Sequence record: MZ234018.1
DNA length: 64,000 bases
Reading direction: 5' to 3' (one strand)
DNA from: Escherichia phage vB_EcoM-101117BS1
Part shown: in pieces, positions 1-9,056 of the stretch
Layout: the number at the start of each line of letters is the position of its first letter
Position numbering within the stretch: the stretch's first letter is position 1
Translations under genes and position numbers: made by a program
The notes under the pieces: model-generated
Seen by the model: only the letters and a program-made list of their open reading frames with translations
Databases searched by the model: none
Told to the model about the DNA's origin: nothing

Positions 1-969
1 ATGAAAACTGTAACTATCAATAAGGGTATCTACTTCGGTAAAGAAATCTCTGGAACTTTTGAGCTCTTAGGCGAATGGTTCCCAGATAATGCTCCGGTAG
101 ATGCACAAGGAGATGGTAAAGTTTTTGTTGAAATTGACGGTAAACGTCGCGGTGTTTGGGTTTACAAATCAGATATTTCATATGATGGTGTAAAAGTTGA
201 AGAAGTTAAAGAATCGTATGAAGATATGAAAACCCGCATTAATAAAAGATTTAATGTTATGGGAATGATGACGAATGGTATTATTAACGGAAACATTCGT
301 TCATTAATTATCTCGGGAGCAGCAGGTATTGGTAAAACGTATTCTTTAGATAAAGCTTTAAATAAAGCAAATGATATTGGATACATTGAGTATAAAAGCA
401 TTAATGGTAAAATCTCTGGTATCGGTCTTTATGAACAGCTTTGGAATAATCGTGAAGAGAATTCTGTCCTTTTGATTGATGATGTGGATGTTTTCTCTGA
501 TATGGACATTCTTAATCTTCTGAAAGCTGCTCTGGACACTGGAGAGACCCGTAAAGTCTGCTGGAGCACCGCATCTTCTTACTTAGAAGAAAAAGGCATT
601 GAGCGTGAGTTTGAATTTAAAGGAACGATTGTTTTTATCACAAACGTTGACATTGACCGCGAATTAGACCGTGGTACTAAACTTGCTCCACATTTACAAG
701 CATTAGTGTCCCGCTCAGTTTATTTGGATTTGGGTGTTCACACTAATGAAGAAATTATGGTCAGGGTTGAAGATGTTATTCTTTCAACTGACATGATGCA
801 AAAACGCGGTCTTTCTGATGAAGAAACTTATAAAGCATTATCATGGATGAAAGTCAATGTTAATCGTTTACGCAATGTTTCACTGCGTACTGCTCTTTAT
901 CTTGCTGACTTTATTATGACCGACAAAAACGGTTGGGAAGAAATCGCTGAGGTTACTCTTCTGAAATAA
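1..969 (+). CDS. AAA+ ATPase-like protein, function unknown (may be 5'-partial at window edge)
   Basis: 322-aa ORF; Walker A GAAGIGKT and Walker B-like LLIDDVD motifs. Confidence 0.55.
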   Translation: MKTVTINKGIYFGKEISGTFELLGEWFPDNAPVDAQGDGKVFVEIDGKRRGVWVYKSDISYDGVKVEEVKESYEDMKTRINKRFNVMGMMTNGIINGNIRSLIISGAAGIGKTYSLDKALNKANDIGYIEYKSINGKISGIGLYEQLWNNREENSVLLIDDVDVFSDMDILNLLKAALDTGETRKVCWSTASSYLEEKGIEREFEFKGTIVFITNVDIDRELDRGTKLAPHLQALVSRSVYLDLGVHTNEEIMVRVEDVILSTDMMQKRGLSDEETYKALSWMKVNVNRLRNVSLRTALYLADFIMTDKNGWEEIAEVTLLK

Positions 970-1071
970 TTCATAAGAGGACTTCTATGACAAAAAAGGC
1001 AGTTCAGAAATAGATTATATGGACTGCCATCAAAAAGATGACTAGAATTAAACTGGTGAATGGAGGTAGTG

Positions 1072-1374
1072 ATGTTATACTCAAAGGCTCGTGAAATTTA
1101 CGAAACTAAAATTAAAGAAGCTGTATTTCAATTCGCAACGACAATGCGATGGACAAATGACTGGGAGTATTCAAAAAATCATAAGAAGCCCATGGTGACA
1201 AGAAAGGCTCATATGTTAGTGTTAATAGACCGTGAACAGATTAAAGCCCGAGAAGCCCTCCAGAATCATAAAAAGGCTGCCTTTGAATGGTTTATGGATA
1301 ACACTGCTCCTGAGACTAAGAAAGCAGTGAGCGCTTGGTTCAGTGGAAAAAATTGTGAAAGAAGTTTCTTTTAG
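1072..1374 (+). CDS. hypothetical protein
   Basis: ORF with GGAGG Shine-Dalgarno 6 nt upstream of ATG 1072; alternative in-frame ATG at 1060. Confidence 0.45.
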   Translation: MLYSKAREIYETKIKEAVFQFATTMRWTNDWEYSKNHKKPMVTRKAHMLVLIDREQIKAREALQNHKKAAFEWFMDNTAPETKKAVSAWFSGKNCERSFF

Positions 1375-1434: not shown

Positions 1435-1962
1435 ATGAATGCTAAAGATATTTTCAACTTGGTAAACTACAATGATGGTAAATTTAAATCTGAAGCTCAA
1501 AGCAAGTTCTTTAATGATGTCTCAATCGGTGGTGAAATCACAGTTGATGGAGGACAAATTTATAAATCTCGTTGGAATTGGATTGTTATCATCGATGAAA
1601 TAGGTATCGTAGAAATTTATAAAAATACGAATAAAAATCGTACATTACACTGGTCTCGTGATACTAACGAACAGTACAAAAAGGATAAAGCATCTAAATT
1701 ATCTCGCGTAACTCAAGAAGATATTGAGTTCATCAAGAAAGATATTTTGATGTATGATAACTTAATTGCTGAAGAGCAAGCTGTTATTGATAAATTTGAC
1801 GAGATTAAAGCTTCTCGTGAAATTCCTGATTTTATGAAAGAATCAGTAAATGAACGATACACTCTCATTTCAGAGCGTATTGAAACTTACAAAAAGCAAA
1901 GAGCTGAACGCCAGAATACTCTTCGGAAGTTTGAAGAACGGTTAAAGACGGTACTCGCATAA
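1435..1962 (+). CDS. hypothetical protein with charged helical C-terminus
   Basis: 175-aa ORF, SD GGAGG upstream, downstream of early promoter. Confidence 0.5.
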   Translation: MNAKDIFNLVNYNDGKFKSEAQSKFFNDVSIGGEITVDGGQIYKSRWNWIVIIDEIGIVEIYKNTNKNRTLHWSRDTNEQYKKDKASKLSRVTQEDIEFIKKDILMYDNLIAEEQAVIDKFDEIKASREIPDFMKESVNERYTLISERIETYKKQRAERQNTLRKFEERLKTVLA

Positions 1963-2017
1963 CCGCTTTATACCAAGGATGGTATAATGGTTCTAAGCCC
2001 TTTTAATTGAGATTATT

Positions 2018-2425
2018 ATGAAACAGTTGATAATTAAAAGATTGAATTTATTGATATGTTGTTTATGTATAGTAATTGCATATGGTTATTACGCAATTAA
2101 TGATTATATGCATTATAAAGATTATGATGTTACTGTGGTTAATACCTTTACAGGAACTCAAGGGAAGGGGTCTAGTTTATCGTTTATTGCCGTATATGAA
2201 CTCAAAGACGGTTATAGATTTAGTGAATATATTTCCCCAGAGATGTATTCATCAATAGAAAAAGGCGATAATATTACTGTAAGTTTACGTCCTTTCGACG
2301 TAAAACAGACATTGTTTGATAATATTGTTTGGTTCTTTGGAATGGTATTAGTTCAATCTGTATGCGGTGCTTATATAGTCTTTTCCATCATATTCTGCGT
2401 ATTTAGTAAAATTGAAATTGAGTGA
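2018..2425 (+). CDS. predicted membrane protein
   Basis: 135-aa ORF with hydrophobic N- and C-terminal segments. Confidence 0.5.
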   Translation: MKQLIIKRLNLLICCLCIVIAYGYYAINDYMHYKDYDVTVVNTFTGTQGKGSSLSFIAVYELKDGYRFSEYISPEMYSSIEKGDNITVSLRPFDVKQTLFDNIVWFFGMVLVQSVCGAYIVFSIIFCVFSKIEIE

Positions 2426-2432
2426 GGAAAAT

Positions 2433-3320
2433 ATGTCAGTAGTAATTAATAATGTCAATGCAGTAATTAAATCTTTAGTTAATAAAAAATTGAATGAATG
2501 GACTGTACTTCGTCGTGGAGAGCCAGATAAATTTTTTCATAGATTTAACCCAACTTTGGATTTGAATGTTATTGACAGAGATGTTCATGCAGAAATTTTA
2601 GATAAGTTTAAAGTTGATATTGGATTTGGATTAGAAAAACATTTGCAGCGAACAAACGGGTCTGGAATGGGTTTATCTAATCGCATTATGAAAGCCCTTA
2701 ATAAAATTGGAGCATTGTCTCGTATTAACGCGAGTGAAATCCTTCATAATTATAATAAAGGATATGACCTTTATGGTCGACTAATGCCGAAATTATCATT
2801 TGACCAAATGATCGCAGATTTGTGGGAAAATCAACGACGATTATTAGCATTAGGCGCTCGATTAGCTAAAGGTCTAGATAAACAAATGATTTTTAAGACC
2901 AATAATACAGAAGACCTTAAATGCTTTAAATTTAGTATTCGCGGCGATGATTATTACGTCAGAGCTCGCTCTACAGATTATGTTAATATGGGGCATCATC
3001 TCTGTTTAGCTTTTGAAGTTTTAAAAGAAGCCGGAACATTAGAATATGTGTCTGGTGCTAAATGCCCGATTGGTTCAAGTTGTATTTTAATTTATCGCCC
3101 GGATGAATCCAGTTCATCTAAATTACCTACAAAACCTGTACCAGTTCGTAGTAACGAAAAACATTCTGAGCAAATTGATTATTTTAATAAGCAAATTGAA
3201 GAGCTGAATATTTCTATTCAACAGTATGACGATGAAATTTTCAGACTATCTGGATTGAGTAGTAAAGCTAAATCTGAGCGTGAAAAATTAATTAAAATTG
3301 TTGATTTACTTAAATCTTAA
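2433..3320 (+). CDS. hypothetical protein with C-terminal coiled-coil-like tail
   Basis: ATG at 2433 after GAGGAAAA SD (track start 2412 is TTG); C-terminal K/E-rich heptad-like segment. Confidence 0.55.
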   Translation: MSVVINNVNAVIKSLVNKKLNEWTVLRRGEPDKFFHRFNPTLDLNVIDRDVHAEILDKFKVDIGFGLEKHLQRTNGSGMGLSNRIMKALNKIGALSRINASEILHNYNKGYDLYGRLMPKLSFDQMIADLWENQRRLLALGARLAKGLDKQMIFKTNNTEDLKCFKFSIRGDDYYVRARSTDYVNMGHHLCLAFEVLKEAGTLEYVSGAKCPIGSSCILIYRPDESSSSKLPTKPVPVRSNEKHSEQIDYFNKQIEELNISIQQYDDEIFRLSGLSSKAKSEREKLIKIVDLLKS

Positions 3321-3328
3321 GGAACACT

Positions 3329-4333
3329 ATGAAAACTCGTTCTCAAATTGAAGATATGGTTCGTAATGCCAGCTATACCCGTAATGTTATGACATTTTTG
3401 TGCCAAAATAATTTAGACCCTGATAGAGTTAATAGTTCCATTCACTTTAAGTATATGAATAGCAGTGAATGGTTACGTCATTTTAGTAAAGCGGGATATA
3501 TTACACAAATGACTGCTCGTGAGCAGCTCACCGATTTCTGTAAAACTATTGATTATAAAAATCCTCTATTTGTTCAAGGCGTTGGTCAGAGTAAGGTCGA
3601 TTTATCAACAGGATTTTTTAATCCAAATCATTATCGTATTGAATGGAGATTTATTGCTCTATTTCGTAAACAATTAAAGCAAATTTTGTCTACTGCTAGT
3701 CGATTAAAAGGCTCTGATATTAACTTAAAGAATCTGAAATTTGATGGTTATACTCTTCAGATGGAAGTAAGACCATTAAAAGAAAATAATAGAACTGCAC
3801 GAATTAGCTTTAAACCTAATACAAAAAATTCTCTTTCAATTTGTGAATGTCTTAAATCACAGTTGACAGAAGCATTTAAGTATATGGATGTTGTTGCTGC
3901 TGTTCAATCTAAGATTTCGCAGCATTTCGAACGATTTAAATTAGATACGACAACATATGAACTTGATATGATCGTTTCATTTAAATATGATTTTTTGAGA
4001 AAGGACGAAGTTACACAAGAGAAAAAACCTGAACCCCAAACTAATTACTCATCAAACGATCCTAAATTTTGGATGTATAGTTCAGATAATAATGATGCAT
4101 GGAAATTTAATAAAGTGAATTTTCTTCCTGTTGAAAATCCGAGTCTTAAACCTGTTGAAAAATGGCACGCTGACGCGATTGAGAAGTCTATCAAGGCAGT
4201 AGATGATGAACTCGTTAAAGCAACTAATGAAGTGTTAGAAGCTGAAAAGATGCTAGAAAAAGCTCAAGAAAAAGTAAAAAATCTCACGAAGCAACGTTCT
4301 AAATTGAACAACGCACTAAATGCACTAAACTAG
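3329..4333 (+). CDS. hypothetical protein with C-terminal coiled-coil-like tail
   Basis: 334-aa ORF; C-terminus KATNEVLEAEKMLEKAQEKVKNLTKQ. Confidence 0.55.
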   Translation: MKTRSQIEDMVRNASYTRNVMTFLCQNNLDPDRVNSSIHFKYMNSSEWLRHFSKAGYITQMTAREQLTDFCKTIDYKNPLFVQGVGQSKVDLSTGFFNPNHYRIEWRFIALFRKQLKQILSTASRLKGSDINLKNLKFDGYTLQMEVRPLKENNRTARISFKPNTKNSLSICECLKSQLTEAFKYMDVVAAVQSKISQHFERFKLDTTTYELDMIVSFKYDFLRKDEVTQEKKPEPQTNYSSNDPKFWMYSSDNNDAWKFNKVNFLPVENPSLKPVEKWHADAIEKSIKAVDDELVKATNEVLEAEKMLEKAQEKVKNLTKQRSKLNNALNALN

Positions 4334-4362
4334 TTTACTTCGCCACAAGGATGTGGTATAAT
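4333..4362 (+). promoter_or_regulatory. T4-type early promoter
   Basis: GTTTAC 4333-4338, 18-bp spacer, TGGTATAAT with TATAAT 4357-4362. Confidence 0.6.
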
Positions 4363-4390
4363 GTTCTTACTTTCTACTGAGGAGATTAAT

Positions 4391-5392
4391 ATGACTCGCA
4401 ACGAATATATTAAATCGTTCAACAGCGTTATTGATGATAAAGCTATACCGATGTTTGGTCAAAATATCGTTCTTTCTATTATCAATCAATGGCTCAATAG
4501 TGTTGATGCAAGTATTGTTTCTTCTACTAAATTTATTCATGAAATTCGTAAAATTTCTAGCCGTGTAGATAAAGATGACATTAAGAAAACCTTTAAAGGG
4601 TCTCGTCTTCTTTCATACTTAGTCAACAGAGATATTCTTAGTAAATTTGGGAAAGAAATTAAACGAACTAAAGATGTAGTAGGATATAATTGGTTCGGTG
4701 ATGTTAATTCTTATCATCTTAATAATAAAGAAGACCCTGAGAATATTTTTACTCGTCGTTGGATTAGTAATTTCAGACTTTTCAAAGGACAAATTCTAAA
4801 ATCAGCTTCTAAATTATGTTATGGCGATTATCGTCAAATTCATCCTTTGGCTTCTGATATGATTATCGTAAAAGAATATGAGCTTGATGAAAATAAAGTA
4901 GCTATTTTTGTGAATTATGGATTTTTTACACCAAACGCTAACCAAAAGAATATTAATAAATTTTTCTCAATTGCTAGCACTATAACTCGTCAGTTAGAGA
5001 CTGCATTACTTTGTATGGAAACAGTAGAAAATATTCATACATATCCTTTTAAGAATATATGCGGATGGGAAGGATATAAAATTGTAATTAGTCTTCGTGA
5101 AGTGAAATGTGCTTATTCACCTACTGATAAAGAAATTTATCAACAAAAATGTGAGGAAATTGTGAATACTCCTAAAGAAGAAACTACCCTTGAGGAACTA
5201 ATGGATAATCTTGATGATTCGCCTGAACCGGCAGAAATTCGTCCAGAAGTTATTGCATTAGAAAAAGCTTATAAAGAAGTTCTAGAAATTTCTAATAAAG
5301 CACAGAAAGAATATGAGCAGGCTAAAAGGATTTGGGAAGAATCTGTCAATCGTCTTGATCGTCTTGAACAAGCTTTACAGTTAATTAAGTAA
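4391..5392 (+). CDS. hypothetical protein with C-terminal coiled-coil-like tail
   Basis: ATG 4391 after GAGGAG SD; C-terminus EKAYKEVLEISNKAQKEYEQAKRIWEESVNRLDRLEQALQ. Confidence 0.55.
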   Translation: MTRNEYIKSFNSVIDDKAIPMFGQNIVLSIINQWLNSVDASIVSSTKFIHEIRKISSRVDKDDIKKTFKGSRLLSYLVNRDILSKFGKEIKRTKDVVGYNWFGDVNSYHLNNKEDPENIFTRRWISNFRLFKGQILKSASKLCYGDYRQIHPLASDMIIVKEYELDENKVAIFVNYGFFTPNANQKNINKFFSIASTITRQLETALLCMETVENIHTYPFKNICGWEGYKIVISLREVKCAYSPTDKEIYQQKCEEIVNTPKEETTLEELMDNLDDSPEPAEIRPEVIALEKAYKEVLEISNKAQKEYEQAKRIWEESVNRLDRLEQALQLIK

Positions 5393-5444
5393 TTTAAAGC
5401 CAAGGATGGCTCGGAGTATAAATCATTAACCAAGTGAGAAGAAT

Positions 5445-6374
5445 ATGAAAACTCGTAAACATTATATTGATTATTTTGACAGTCTTATTACTAAACACCG
5501 TAATTATCAGATCGGGCACAGAGCAGTAATCAATAATATTCTTCGTGATTTCCTTCAATATGTTGGTCAGGAAAATCATATCTGTAAAGATACTCAAAAC
5601 GCTTATTCTCATTCGTTAGGCAATTTGCTTGAATGGTTTAAACGTTCTCGTATGTTATCTTCTACTGTAGCTCGTGATAACATTAAAAACTTTATGAAGC
5701 CGAGCTTCATTAAATCTGAGACATCTATAACCGATTTGGTTGAATTTACTATTGTTAATGATGTTAAAAAGACTCATTTGGCTGATTGGTTTTCTACCAT
5801 TCCTGAAACCAAATTTGCTGATAAATTTGCTTGTCAATTCAATGACCAAGTGAATATGCTTTTTAAGCATGCTCGCAAACTGTTTACCGCGGGCGATGCT
5901 CGCACAAATACAGTTCATGTTAAGGACTGGGTTATTGCTGATGAAGTAACACACAAGCCAGGTGGTTCATCAGTATTAATTAATATTCAAGTTCCTTATT
6001 ATTACTCACGTAATCTCGGCACCATGACAGCTAGAGAAATTAATAAGCACAACAAAACTATTCGTTCGTTGTCTTATAAACTCCGCATGATGTTAAAAAT
6101 TATGGATGTAGTGGAAATGTATGACGAAACCGAAGATAATGGTTCAATGTTATACAGTTTACGCATTCTAATTAAACTGAAGAACCCTAATACGTATAAG
6201 CCAGTTGTAAAAGAGCCTAAAGTAGAAAAGGTTGATAATCTGAGTGAAGAACGCGAATATCTCAGTGCCCGTTTGATTGAAGTTGAAAAACAGATTGAAG
6301 AGCATACTAAAGTTATTAAGGCTTTAACCACCAAAGCAAATGGTTTACGTGATGCTATTGAGGTACTGAAATGA
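5445..6374 (+). CDS. hypothetical protein with C-terminal coiled-coil-like tail
   Basis: 309-aa ORF; C-terminus [44 protein letters not shown]. Confidence 0.55.
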   Translation: MKTRKHYIDYFDSLITKHRNYQIGHRAVINNILRDFLQYVGQENHICKDTQNAYSHSLGNLLEWFKRSRMLSSTVARDNIKNFMKPSFIKSETSITDLVEFTIVNDVKKTHLADWFSTIPETKFADKFACQFNDQVNMLFKHARKLFTAGDARTNTVHVKDWVIADEVTHKPGGSSVLINIQVPYYYSRNLGTMTAREINKHNKTIRSLSYKLRMMLKIMDVVEMYDETEDNGSMLYSLRILIKLKNPNTYKPVVKEPKVEKVDNLSEEREYLSARLIEVEKQIEEHTKVIKALTTKANGLRDAIEVLK

Positions 6375-6667
6375 AAAAGCGTTTATTAGAAGATATTGCC
6401 GAAGCTTCAGATTTTCCTGAATGGACTCCATGCGCTGGGTTTGATAAAGGACTGCTAGTTACTGACGATTTAGATTTTAAACCTCCAGCATGGGATGCTA
6501 TTATGGCTATGGTTAAACGTCGCGAAAGGGCTTCTAAAAACGTTCCTAATTGCCCTGAATGTGGAACTGAACAGGTGCAATTGGTCCATTGGCAGACTAG
6601 TAATCTTCGTTATAAATGTCGCCATTGTAAACACCGATTTGACCGAGAAGAAAATGACAAAGCGTAA
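6371..6667 (+). CDS. small zinc-ribbon protein
   Basis: 98-aa ORF with CPEC...CRHC motif pair; start overlaps previous stop (ATGA). Confidence 0.5.
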
Positions 6668-6857
6668 AGAATATATGGAGACTGCTGAAAAGGCAGTCCG
6701 TGAATTAGCAATAGCTTATTATAATGAACATGGTAAATTTCCTGATAGATACAGCGTGCTTAAATCTGCTTTAACTCGTTCATATAAAAATATGCTATCA
6801 GAAGTAAGTGATATTATATACAAACATAAAGAACAAACGGGCCAAAGTCTTGATTGA
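6654..6857 (+). CDS. hypothetical small protein, C-terminally truncated by a 55-bp tandem duplication
   Basis: ATG 6654; TGA 6855-6857 is created at the duplication junction; without the second copy the frame would end at TAA 6949-6951. Confidence 0.45.
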
Positions 6858-6952: not shown

Positions 6953-7216
6953 ATGTTTAAAGTATATGGTTATGATAGCAACATTCATAAATGCGTGTAT
7001 TGCGATAATGCAAAACGTCTTTTGACCGTGAAGAAACAGCCGTTTGAATTTATCAACATTATGCCGGAAAAAGGTGTTTTTGATGATGAGAAAATCGCTG
7101 AGCTTCTGACTAAACTAGGTCGTGATACTCAAATCGGCTTGACAATGCCTCAGGTATTTGCTCCTGATGGAAGTCATATTGGTGGATTTGACCAACTGCG
7201 AGAATATTTTAAATGA
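6953..7216 (+). CDS. nrdC: thioredoxin/glutaredoxin-like NrdC
   Basis: 87-aa ORF with CVYC active-site motif; matches T4 NrdC in size and sequence. Confidence 0.85.
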   Translation: MFKVYGYDSNIHKCVYCDNAKRLLTVKKQPFEFINIMPEKGVFDDEKIAELLTKLGRDTQIGLTMPQVFAPDGSHIGGFDQLREYFK

Positions 7217-7430: not shown

Positions 7431-7601
7431 ATGATTTACGATATTAGTGTATCAAGAACTCCGTCAATGGTTACTATTCCAGCCGAAGAACTAGATCGTC
7501 TTCAGAAAATTGAAGAACTTCTTTGGGAAATTGAATGTGACCTGCCATCAGGACTAGAATCCTGGATTGATGATGAAGAACTTAATAAATTGCGAAATTA
7601 A
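7431..7601 (+). CDS. hypothetical small acidic protein
   Basis: 56-aa ORF below the ORF-track threshold; tight spacing to neighbours. Confidence 0.3.
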   Translation: MIYDISVSRTPSMVTIPAEELDRLQKIEELLWEIECDLPSGLESWIDDEELNKLRN

Positions 7602-7611
7602 TTGGTGAAAA

Positions 7612-7932
7612 ATGACTATTGAAAATAAATTAGATGTTGATGCAGTTCTGAGCGAAATCATTGAAGACCATGATGCATTTTCGGAAAACTATGATTTCGA
7701 TTTTTCCGATTATCTTAAACCTGTCGAAATAGAAGACTGGGTGCAAGATGGTAAATGTCAATATCGTCAGTGTGTTTACTTTAGTCCAAAACATAATGTA
7801 CATGTGGCTGTAAATGAATCTCGGTCAGGTTCTTATCATTCTGATTGGTATTATGCAGTTCCGACTGTTGAACTAGTCGAGCCCCGTGAACGTGTAGTAA
7901 CTCAGACAGTACGAGAATGGATTACGCTATAA
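7612..7932 (+). CDS. hypothetical acidic protein
   Basis: 106-aa ORF. Confidence 0.45.
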   Translation: MTIENKLDVDAVLSEIIEDHDAFSENYDFDFSDYLKPVEIEDWVQDGKCQYRQCVYFSPKHNVHVAVNESRSGSYHSDWYYAVPTVELVEPRERVVTQTVREWITL

Positions 7933-8552: not shown

Positions 8553-8583
8553 ACCCTTATCTATTTAAGGTAAGGGTTTATTA
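8553..8583 (+). terminator. hairpin followed by T-rich tract after pin-like ORF
   Basis: inverted repeat accctta...taagggt followed by tttatt. Confidence 0.3.
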
Positions 8584-9056
8584 TGTTATTGACTGGCAAA
8601 TTATACAAAGAAGAAAAACAGAAATTTTATGATGCACAAAATGGTAAATGTTTAATTTGCCAACGAGAACTAAATCCTGATGTTCAAGCTAATCATCTTG
8701 ATCATGACCATGAATTAAATGGACCAAAAGCAGGAAAGGTGCGTGGATTGCTTTGTAATCTCTGCAATGCCGCAGAAGGTCAAATGAAGCATAAATTTAA
8801 TCGTTCTGGCTTAAAGGGACAAGGTGTTGATTATCTTGAATGGTTAGAAAATTTACTTACTTATTTAAAATCCGATTACACCCAAAATAATATTCACCCT
8901 AACTTTGTTGGAGATAAATCAAAGGAATTTTCTCGTTTAGGAAAAGAGGAAATGATGGCCGAGATGCTTCAAAGAGGATTTGAATATAATGAATCTGACA
9001 CCAAAACACAGTTAATAGCTTCATTTAAGAAGCAGCTTAGAAAGAGTTTAAAATGA
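8583..9056 (+). CDS. 49: recombination endonuclease VII (Holliday junction resolvase)
   Basis: 157 aa; HLDHDHE and CNLCN His-Me/zinc motifs; matches T4 gp49. Confidence 0.85.
   Translation: MLLTGKLYKEEKQKFYDAQNGKCLICQRELNPDVQANHLDHDHELNGPKAGKVRGLLCNLCNAAEGQMKHKFNRSGLKGQGVDYLEWLENLLTYLKSDYTQNNIHPNFVGDKSKEFSRLGKEEMMAEMLQRGFEYNESDTKTQLIASFKKQLRKSLK

Follow-up and report, generated by a model that had tools for sequence, protein, structure and literature searches.

Four tandem paralogues in the nrdC region of a T4-like phage and their possible role in counter-defence

T4 is the best-studied phage, and most of its ~130 non-essential early genes are without an assigned function. A T4 clone with compensatory deletions no longer plates on ECOR17, and deletion of dsr1 from this host restores plating (Srikant et al., eLife 2022, PMC9391042). 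Expression of T4 nrdC.5 alone restores plating of the T4 deletion mutant on MG1655 carrying dsr1 (PMC9391042). Major capsid proteins of phages are reported to be recognised by the tetratricopeptide repeat (TPR) sensor of Dsr1 (2026 preprint, PMC12803255). Here we describe the corresponding locus in a Tequatrovirus (T4-like) genome, that of Escherichia phage vB_EcoM-101117BS1 (sequence record MZ234018.1), of which a stretch of 64,000 nucleotides (nt), hereafter the window, was analysed. Four consecutive genes of this window, nrdC.6, nrdC.5, nrdC.4 and nrdC.3, encode an array of proteins that we assign with high confidence to one superfamily. The second of the four open reading frames (ORFs) occupies the same genomic position as nrdC.5 in T4.

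Common ancestry of the four proteins

Direct comparison gives few hints of a relationship. In BLASTP, NrdC.4 and NrdC.3 aligned with 25% identity over 285 amino acids (aa) with an expectation value (E) of 5e-7, and five of the six pairings among the four proteins, all but NrdC.4/NrdC.3, gave nothing. PHROGs places NrdC.4 and NrdC.3 in one family over their full length (phrog_1435, E 1.4e-169 and 6e-115, respectively) and NrdC.5 and NrdC.6 in separate ones, with NrdC.6 matching phrog_2257 over its full length (E 7e-152). Pfam has three families, PF23882/DUF7235 for NrdC.5, PF26897 for NrdC.4 and PF26899 for NrdC.6; precomputed annotation puts PF26897 on every NrdC.4 homologue and PF26899 on all 105 homologues of NrdC.6. 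The PF23882 match to NrdC.5 scored 388.3 bits (E 3.8e-116, profile positions 1-307; the gathering cut-off is 30 bits). None of the other three ORFs matched DUF7235 even at E<=1, and their relation to it is only at the superfamily level. The blank BLASTP pairings and the split into three families are what four unrelated genes, sharing only their size and a convergent coiled-coil tail, would also produce. We give this explanation next to no credence, as it is contradicted by the evidence from profiles, intermediate sequences, a non-circular search and predicted structures that follows.

Pairwise alignment of profiles, proposed as a check in an initial annotation made from the sequence alone, joined the proteins. 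In hhalign, NrdC.4 and NrdC.3 aligned at 98.1% (E 1e-13), the combined NrdC.4+NrdC.3 profile aligned with NrdC.5 at 85% (E 6e-6) across 244 columns that start at residue ~50 and take in the whole tail, and NrdC.6 was linked weakly (P 3e-4) to the merged profile of the other three. Three motifs stand in register in a MAFFT alignment of the four families (A4), and hhalign aligned the same segments. Motif 1 has the pattern F/L-x-K-x-G/S-x-L/I-S/T-x-x-x-A/N-R/S-D/E-x-I/L-x-x-F/Y and appears in A4 as IKKTFKGSRLLSYLVNRDILSKF in NrdC.4, LLEWFKRSRMLSSTVARDNIKNF in NrdC.3, WLRHFSKAGYITQMTAREQLTDF in NrdC.5 and IMKALNKIGALSRINASEILHNY in NrdC.6. Motif 2 is centred on A-S/A-R/K-L-x-x-G-D and motif 3 on L-x-x-A-L/F-x-x-M-D/E-x-V.

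Proteins from other genera that matched the A4 profile (P0235, P0240, P0243 and P0247) serve as intermediates. In BLASTP the NrdC.6 family reaches P0235, P0243 and P0247 (E 7e-8 to 6e-10), P0235 reaches P0240 (4e-12), and P0240 reaches NrdC.3 (4e-6), NrdC.4 (2e-5) and NrdC.5 (6e-6, over a 56-residue tail only). The intermediates also match DUF7235, and two of these matches reach or exceed its cut-off of 30 bits (P0240 with 48 bits and P0235 with 30 bits). For a non-circular test, we built a hidden Markov model (HMM) from eight intermediates of other genera after removing their last 50 residues, and compared it with the 182 window ORFs of at least 50 aa. It found exactly the four array ORFs (E 1.3e-9, 2e-8, 1.3e-7 and 4e-5, the value for NrdC.6 being 1.3e-7), and the next ORF had an E of 0.3.

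Together with the structure comparison described below, the profiles, the intermediates and this HMM show with high confidence that the four proteins are paralogues of one superfamily. The initial annotation had seen no obvious mutual identity among the N-terminal domains, which holds for most pairs, whether compared by eye or in BLASTP, but not for NrdC.4 and NrdC.3, and hhalign, the A4 motifs, the BLASTP intermediates and the HMM make all four N-domains remote homologues. Its proposal of a single tandem family with diverged copies holds more strongly than it was put, since the N-domains are homologous too.

Scans of Pfam, NCBIfam and PADLOC gave nothing above threshold except DUF7235 on NrdC.5, and no enzyme, DNA-binding or defence family. 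A sequence profile search of the PDB returned designed helical repeats and ribosomal L36 only, which we judged spurious. Phages do possess metabolic answers to SIR2 defences, the nicotinamide adenine dinucleotide (NAD+) reconstitution pathways NARP1, NARP2 and NARP3, and the array proteins could by analogy be enzymes that act, for example, on NAD+ or its breakdown products and so counter an NAD+-depleting defence. We consider this very improbable. The proteins match no enzyme family or solved enzyme, and the divergence of the paralogues (13-25% identity) and their variable copy number are unlike those of a metabolic enzyme. A4 contains zero invariant columns, only two columns conserved at 90% or more, both of them hydrophobic (L and A), and no polar residue conserved across the superfamily, which argues against catalysis. 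The array proteins probably act by binding instead.

Domain layout, predicted fold and the C-terminal tail

Each of the four proteins consists of a basic globular domain of ~220-260 residues, a short, poorly ordered linker and a C-terminal heptad helix. The globular domain begins with a helical part, which is followed by a beta-beta-alpha-beta-beta sandwich. AlphaFold2 models were obtained for NrdC.4 and NrdC.6 as monomers. The NrdC.4 model (predicted local distance difference test score (pLDDT) 78.9, predicted template modelling score (pTM) 0.65) has a globular alpha/beta region at residues 1-258, a disordered acidic linker at 259-284 and one helix at 285-332, and the NrdC.6 model (pLDDT 77.1) has a globular region at 1-222, a low-confidence linker and two helices in the tail (Table 1). 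The elements follow one another identically in both models. Two helices with motif 1 come first and two with motif 2 next; a beta hairpin, a long helix with motif 3 and another beta hairpin complete the globular part, after which the linker leads into the tail.

When BFVD was searched with Foldseek, the two models matched the same uncharacterised proteins of ~300-335 aa from T4-like phages with probability 1.0 and template modelling (TM) scores of 0.4-0.48. These shared matches come from Pectobacterium PM2, Enterobacter IME523, Acinetobacter fHyAci03, Acj9 and Acj61, Klebsiella Mineola and Yersinia fHe-Yen9-01. Further matches of the NrdC.4 model were JS10 NrdC.6 (E 2.5e-5) and an NrdC.3 from Tequatrovirus. 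Judged by the order of elements and the shared Foldseek matches, the predicted fold of NrdC.4 and NrdC.6 is the same. The structure search had been named beforehand as a place where four unrelated housekeeping folds might surface; for the two modelled proteins it gave a common fold, and no such folds turned up. The tail scoring in all four proteins (below) and the layouts of these two models likewise bear out the tandem array with shared architecture.

The sandwich permits a version of the counter-defence interpretation in which the proteins are decoys or mimics of virion proteins: it would imitate a tail-terminator-like structural protein and thereby occupy or mislead those immune sensors that respond to structural proteins of phages. 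We find this improbable. A different role, which we take as the main rival of counter-defence by binding, is suggested by the charge of the globular domains. All four are basic (isoelectric point (pI) 9.0-9.6, net charge +7 to +12), with tails that are neutral or acidic. Motif 1 forms a pair of helices resembling a helix-turn-helix, and residues 30-86 of NrdC.3 (window positions 5532-5702) bear a weak similarity to the SAM-like N-domain of XerD and phage integrases (E 0.004-0.11, far below cut-offs). The four proteins could hence be nucleic-acid-binding early proteins, that is, regulators of transcription or replication or shields of DNA or RNA, that dimerise through the tail, the anti-Dsr1 effect of NrdC.5 being indirect. 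We regard this as fairly unlikely, and the decoy and enzyme interpretations as less likely still.

The tails were assessed by scoring every 35-residue window of each protein for hydrophobic residues at heptad positions a and d, with 300 whole-protein shuffles for each. The best window was the C-terminal tail in all four proteins (starting at residue 248 in NrdC.6, 288 in NrdC.5, 283 in NrdC.4 and 275 in NrdC.3), with nine or ten of the ten a/d positions hydrophobic. Shuffled sequences reached the score of the tail in 8, 1, 14 and 4 of the 300 cases for NrdC.6, NrdC.5, NrdC.4 and NrdC.3, respectively. Charged residues make up 36-41% of the tails versus 25-27% of the rest of the protein. Hence, the charged, heptad-like tail ascribed to each ORF in the initial annotation is confirmed, and the peptide that it gave as an example, EKAYKEVLEISNKAQKEYEQAKRIWEESVNRLDRLEQALQ, is found in the tail of the third ORF, NrdC.4. 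The coiled-coil check that it had called for found heptad periodicity in all four tails and long predicted helices in the NrdC.4 and NrdC.6 models. Weak matches of the tails to coiled-coil families and to BrxC were judged compositional.

The tail is an amphipathic heptad helix of 45-55 residues, of fixed length and at the extreme C-terminus: a 48-residue alignment of the tails of 22 family members contains zero internal gaps. Between genera the tail is always better conserved than the globular domain, the N-domains diverging faster. For NrdC.6, identity is 56-71% in the tail versus 25-37% in the N-domain, and for NrdC.4 it is mostly 57-69% versus 40-52%. Neither NrdC.8 (E 2.3) nor any other ORF of the window carries the tail. 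HMMs made from the tails of single families did not detect the tails of the other families, and because of this the homology of the tails is weaker than that of the N-domains. From its periodicity and predicted helicity, the tail may form a coiled coil and mediate oligomerisation.

Genomic setting, distribution and evolution of the array

The coordinates of the array, its motifs and tails, and the neighbouring genes are collected in Table 1. The four genes sit on the strand that bears the T4-type early genes. The coordinates and sizes originally given for the four consecutive ORFs are borne out. The ORF list made by a program had earlier starts for two of them (TTG at 2412 and ATG at 4361), and the ATG starts chosen here have a Shine-Dalgarno sequence (GAGG, AAGGA or GAGGAG) upstream and agree with the annotated coding sequences of T4 and RB14.

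Table 1. Positions of the array genes, their motifs and tails, and neighbouring features in the window; gene names were assigned by comparison with the annotated RB14 and T4 records
Feature	Position	Strand	Evidence
NrdC.10	1-969	+	RB14/T4 comparison
NrdC.9	1060-1374	+	RB14/T4 comparison
NrdC.8	1435-1962	+	RB14/T4 comparison
NrdC.7 (membrane protein)	2018-2425	+	RB14/T4 comparison
NrdC.6 orthologue, 295 aa	2433-3320	+	96.6% aa identity to T4 NrdC.6; phrog_2257; PF26899 on homologues
Motif 1 in NrdC.6 (IMKALNKIGALSRINASEILHNYNK)	2685-2759	+	MAFFT A4, hhalign
NrdC.6 heptad tail, aa 241-295, ending EREKLIKIVDLLKS	3153-3317	+	heptad 9/10; model helices 241-271, 277-294
NrdC.5 orthologue, 334 aa, DUF7235	3329-4333	+	PF23882; 90% aa identity to T4 NrdC.5
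Motif 1 equivalent in NrdC.5	3467-3544	+	MAFFT A4, hhalign
NrdC.5 heptad tail, aa 279-334, ending TKQRSKLNNALNALN	4163-4330	+	heptad 10/10; 1/300 shuffles
Promoter-like site TTTACT-17-TATAAT with extended TG	4334-4362	+	consensus scan; in 57-nt gap before nrdC.4
NrdC.4 orthologue, 333 aa	4391-5392	+	94.6% identity to T4 NrdC.4; phrog_1435; PF26897 on homologues
Motif 1 equivalent in NrdC.4	4580-4654	+	MAFFT A4, hhalign
NrdC.4 heptad tail, aa 285-333, ending NRLDRLEQALQLIK	5243-5389	+	heptad score, model helix, conservation
NrdC.3 orthologue, 309 aa, closest paralogue of NrdC.4	5445-6374	+	phrog_1435; 61% identity to T4 NrdC.3
Motif 1 equivalent in NrdC.3	5625-5699	+	MAFFT A4, hhalign
NrdC.3 heptad tail, aa 265-309	6237-6371	+	heptad score, conservation
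NrdC.2	6371-6667	+	RB14/T4 comparison
nrdC	6953-7216	+	RB14/T4 comparison
Endonuclease VII	8583-9056	+	RB14/T4 comparison

The block had been described as variable, which it is not within the genus. Window positions 2000-6700 are matched by 686 phage records, 462 of which cover at least 80% of the region, mostly with 90-99% DNA identity; the variation lies between genera and in occasional deletions. The A4 profile, compared with 1.84 billion protein representatives, matched 28 at E<=1e-3, and the family is confined to phages and specific to the T4-like ones. No cellular family related to the array proteins was found in the Pfam, NCBIfam and PADLOC scans or the PDB search. Word-indexed homologue searches returned close relatives only (at least 40% identity), and a scan of viral contigs with NrdC.3 gave seven loci.

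A comparison of gene content across T4-like genomes, another check named beforehand, found one to four copies depending on the genus. Tequatrovirus has all four. Dhakavirus (WG01) and Gaprivervirus (SP18) have three, namely NrdC.6 (~50% identity), an NrdC.5-like protein (23%) and NrdC.4 (45-53%), and no NrdC.3. Mosigvirus (APCEc01) also has three, an NrdC.6-like protein (32%), an NrdC.5-like protein (21%) and NrdC.3 (75%), and no NrdC.4. Marfavirus (F48) and Kanagawavirus (IME523) have a single copy, which lies at the same locus, between the nrdC.11/nrdC.10 region and nrdC. Such a position of the single-copy gene fits an array that grew out of one ancestor through tandem duplication.

The gaps before nrdC.4 (4334-4390) and nrdC.3 (5393-5444) resemble each other and T4 early promoters, with the common layout TTTAC/TTTAA...CAAGGATG...GTATAAT/GTATAAA. 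In their alignment, the promoter-like site before nrdC.4 has a similar sequence at 5393-5423, before nrdC.3. This likeness is consistent with duplication of a gene together with its promoter. Promoter-like sites overall were no commoner than in shuffled sequences (29 found versus 27.6 expected), and the site before nrdC.4 is therefore a lead only.

The array has been remodelled by recombination, through replacement of NrdC.3 alleles and through microhomology deletions and fusions. In Salmonella phage Manna (Manna_094; locus L006, 4215-5252), residues 1-269 of NrdC.6 are fused in frame to the linker and tail of NrdC.4, and NrdC.5 is deleted. ACG-C40 and Pinarejo have deletions inside the array, P0057 is a fusion of NrdC.5 and NrdC.3 joined at a short shared peptide, P0123 contains an internal duplication in NrdC.6, and P0244 carries an unrelated, foreign N-terminus on an exact NrdC.5 tail. 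The fusions, the duplication and the deletions are joined at short shared sequences. Given these natural deletions and fusions, the array genes are dispensable; even with nrdC.5 lost, the T4 evo 3 deletion clone remains viable on its laboratory host (PMC9391042).

Evolutionary rates were estimated as the median of pairwise, gene-wide ratios of nonsynonymous to synonymous substitution rates (dN/dS) between the window and seven other Tequatrovirus genomes. The values were 0.09 for NrdC.6, 0.21 for NrdC.5, 0.18 for NrdC.4 and 0.32 for NrdC.3, which is 3- to 30-fold above those of the neighbours NrdC.10 (0.03), NrdC.8 (0.01), nrdC (~0) and endonuclease VII (~0). Constraint on the four array genes is clearly relaxed relative to these neighbours. 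Values of 0.09-0.32 nevertheless mean that selection is purifying. The family had been called diversifying; this is right in that the rates exceed those of the neighbours, the N-domains change faster than the tails and NrdC.3 has divergent alleles, but not in the sense of a gene-wide dN/dS above 1. NrdC.6 is the least variable, with 95-99% aa identity in most Tequatrovirus records. In NrdC.5, the differences between the window and T4 include variable spots at residues 15-60 and in the linker.

NrdC.3 is a mosaic. Its identity to the T4 protein is far below that of the neighbouring genes (90-99.7%), and sharply different alleles occur within Tequatrovirus. Relative to T4, T2 and T6 the ends are conserved and the centre (residues ~75-270) is replaced, with 23-70% identity to T4 in central windows. 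The synonymous rate (dS) is ~1.0-1.2 in the centre and ~0-0.1 in the tail, a contrast that points to an old or foreign central cassette between recently shared ends.

Several observations concern the genes around the array. NrdC.2 is a small zinc-ribbon protein with two CxxC pairs and several sub-threshold zinc-ribbon Pfam matches; its start overlaps the stop of NrdC.3 (ATGA), and in all genera examined it comes after the last member of the family. NrdC.10, a P-loop NTPase, gave sub-threshold Pfam matches of the AAA and STAND-like kinds and shares 99.7% identity with its T4 counterpart; as its dN/dS of ~0.03 indicates, it is far more constrained than the four array genes downstream. Between nrdC.10 and nrdC.9, RB14 (L002, 1466-2185) and T6 (L010, 814-1533) carry a seg-like homing endonuclease gene that neither the window nor T4 has. 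Between nrdC and the gp49.x genes lies a 56-aa ORF (7431-7601, +) to which several relatives give the annotation 'antitoxin from a toxin-antitoxin system'. The ORF at 7612-7932 (+) is an orthologue of T4 gp49.2 (97% aa identity); a T6 protein named Gp49.2 is reported to be an inhibitor of the OLD defence (2026 paper), and the T6 record that we examined contained no match to this ORF. Also of note is that many GenBank records (e.g. H1, H6 and H9) label the whole nrdC.1-nrdC.11 block 'thioredoxin', which looks like a spill-over of the name from nrdC. None of the four array proteins has a thioredoxin match.

Function and comparison with known systems

With moderate confidence, we interpret the four paralogues as non-enzymatic binding proteins that neutralise host immunity and are encoded by a duplicated array remodelled by recombination. 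The fast-evolving globular domain of each paralogue would recognise a different host target, and the slow-evolving tail would provide a common function, most likely coiled-coil self-association or docking to a shared partner. NrdC.5 would block the SIR2-type NADase defence Dsr1. The array itself would go back to one ancestral gene that was duplicated at the locus. The initial annotation had spoken of possible counter-defence effectors; for NrdC.5 this agrees with the literature (PMC9391042) and with the 90% identity of the window ORF to the T4 protein, and to the other three it extends by inference only. Judging by its sequence, the NrdC.5 of the window probably keeps the anti-Dsr1 activity of its T4 counterpart. 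Paralogy, dispensability and evolutionary rate suggest that NrdC.6, NrdC.4 and NrdC.3 may have a counter-defence role as well.

A more elaborate form of this interpretation, which we put forward only tentatively, is a modular counter-defence toolkit in which the tail plugs the paralogues into the same hub and interchangeable globular domains disable different immune sensors. The paralogues themselves might form this hub as a hetero-oligomeric coiled coil, or it might be a partner, from the host or the phage, that all of them share. The target of NrdC.5 would be Dsr1, and those of NrdC.3, NrdC.4 and NrdC.6 would be other systems. New specificities could emerge by duplication and exchange of central-domain cassettes, of the kind seen in the NrdC.3 alleles and in the chimeras Manna_094 and P0244.

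A number of points weigh against neutralisation of host immunity by binding as the common role of the array. The functional evidence concerns NrdC.5 alone and consists of plating rescue in T4 (PMC9391042); direct binding of NrdC.5 to Dsr1 is not reported in the literature that we found. The basic N-domains and the weak SAM-like matches of NrdC.3 leave room for nucleic-acid binding. A tail HMM from other genera does not detect the tails of NrdC.4 and NrdC.3, so that homology of the tails across all four proteins is read from their position, their length and the pattern of heptads. Heptads together with a predicted helix fall short of proof of a coiled coil, and the confidence of the structure models is medium (pLDDT 77-79). 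Each array gene has a dN/dS below 1, with no gene-wide signature of an arms race or of positive selection. NrdC.6 in particular is so well conserved (dN/dS 0.09) that it fits a conserved role as well as counter-defence.

The four genes are long-known T4 ORFs, and the phenotype of NrdC.5 has been published. Of their union in one superfamily, its reach into other T4-like genera and the conserved tail, no description was found in the searchable literature or in the family databases. Our literature searches returned nothing on how NrdC.5 works, nor on NrdC.3, NrdC.4 and NrdC.6, and for DUF7235, nrdC.3, nrdC.4, nrdC.6 and named Dsr1 inhibitors nothing beyond the 2022 eLife paper. The result is useful but incremental and does not amount to a new kind of system. 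As paralogues of NrdC.5, NrdC.3, NrdC.4 and NrdC.6 become specific candidates for counter-defence, and other T4-like genera have related single-copy genes in the corresponding place. The three Pfam and PHROGs families could be merged into one superfamily. The array is also of practical interest with regard to the determinants of host range in Tequatrovirus phages used for therapy, and the conserved tail and the natural chimeras lend themselves to domain swaps.

The closest known system is T4 NrdC.5 (DUF7235/PF23882) itself. The second ORF of the array is its orthologue by aa identity, full-length Pfam match and position, and the other three are its remote homologues with the same architecture. 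The difference is that activity has been demonstrated for the T4 protein only, and that NrdC.6, NrdC.4 and NrdC.3 are without a DUF7235 match. The alpha/beta sandwich fold of tail terminator or gpU-like proteins (DUF3168) may also belong among the closest known systems. A working model for NrdC.5 comes from SPbeta-like Bacillus phages, whose protein DSAD1 binds a SIR2-domain NADase defence and thereby disables it; its target, however, is DSR2 in another host, no kinship with it in sequence or fold was found or tested for, and binding of NrdC.5 to Dsr1 is proposed here by analogy. Finally, the dmd-tifA-adfA 'anti-TA (toxin-antitoxin) island' of T4 and Gp49.2, the OLD inhibitor, resemble the array as small clusters of non-essential early genes, each of which neutralises a particular host defence and which are gained, lost or amplified by recombination. 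In those cases the proteins are small and mutually unrelated, whereas the array consists of ~300-aa paralogues with a common C-terminal helix.

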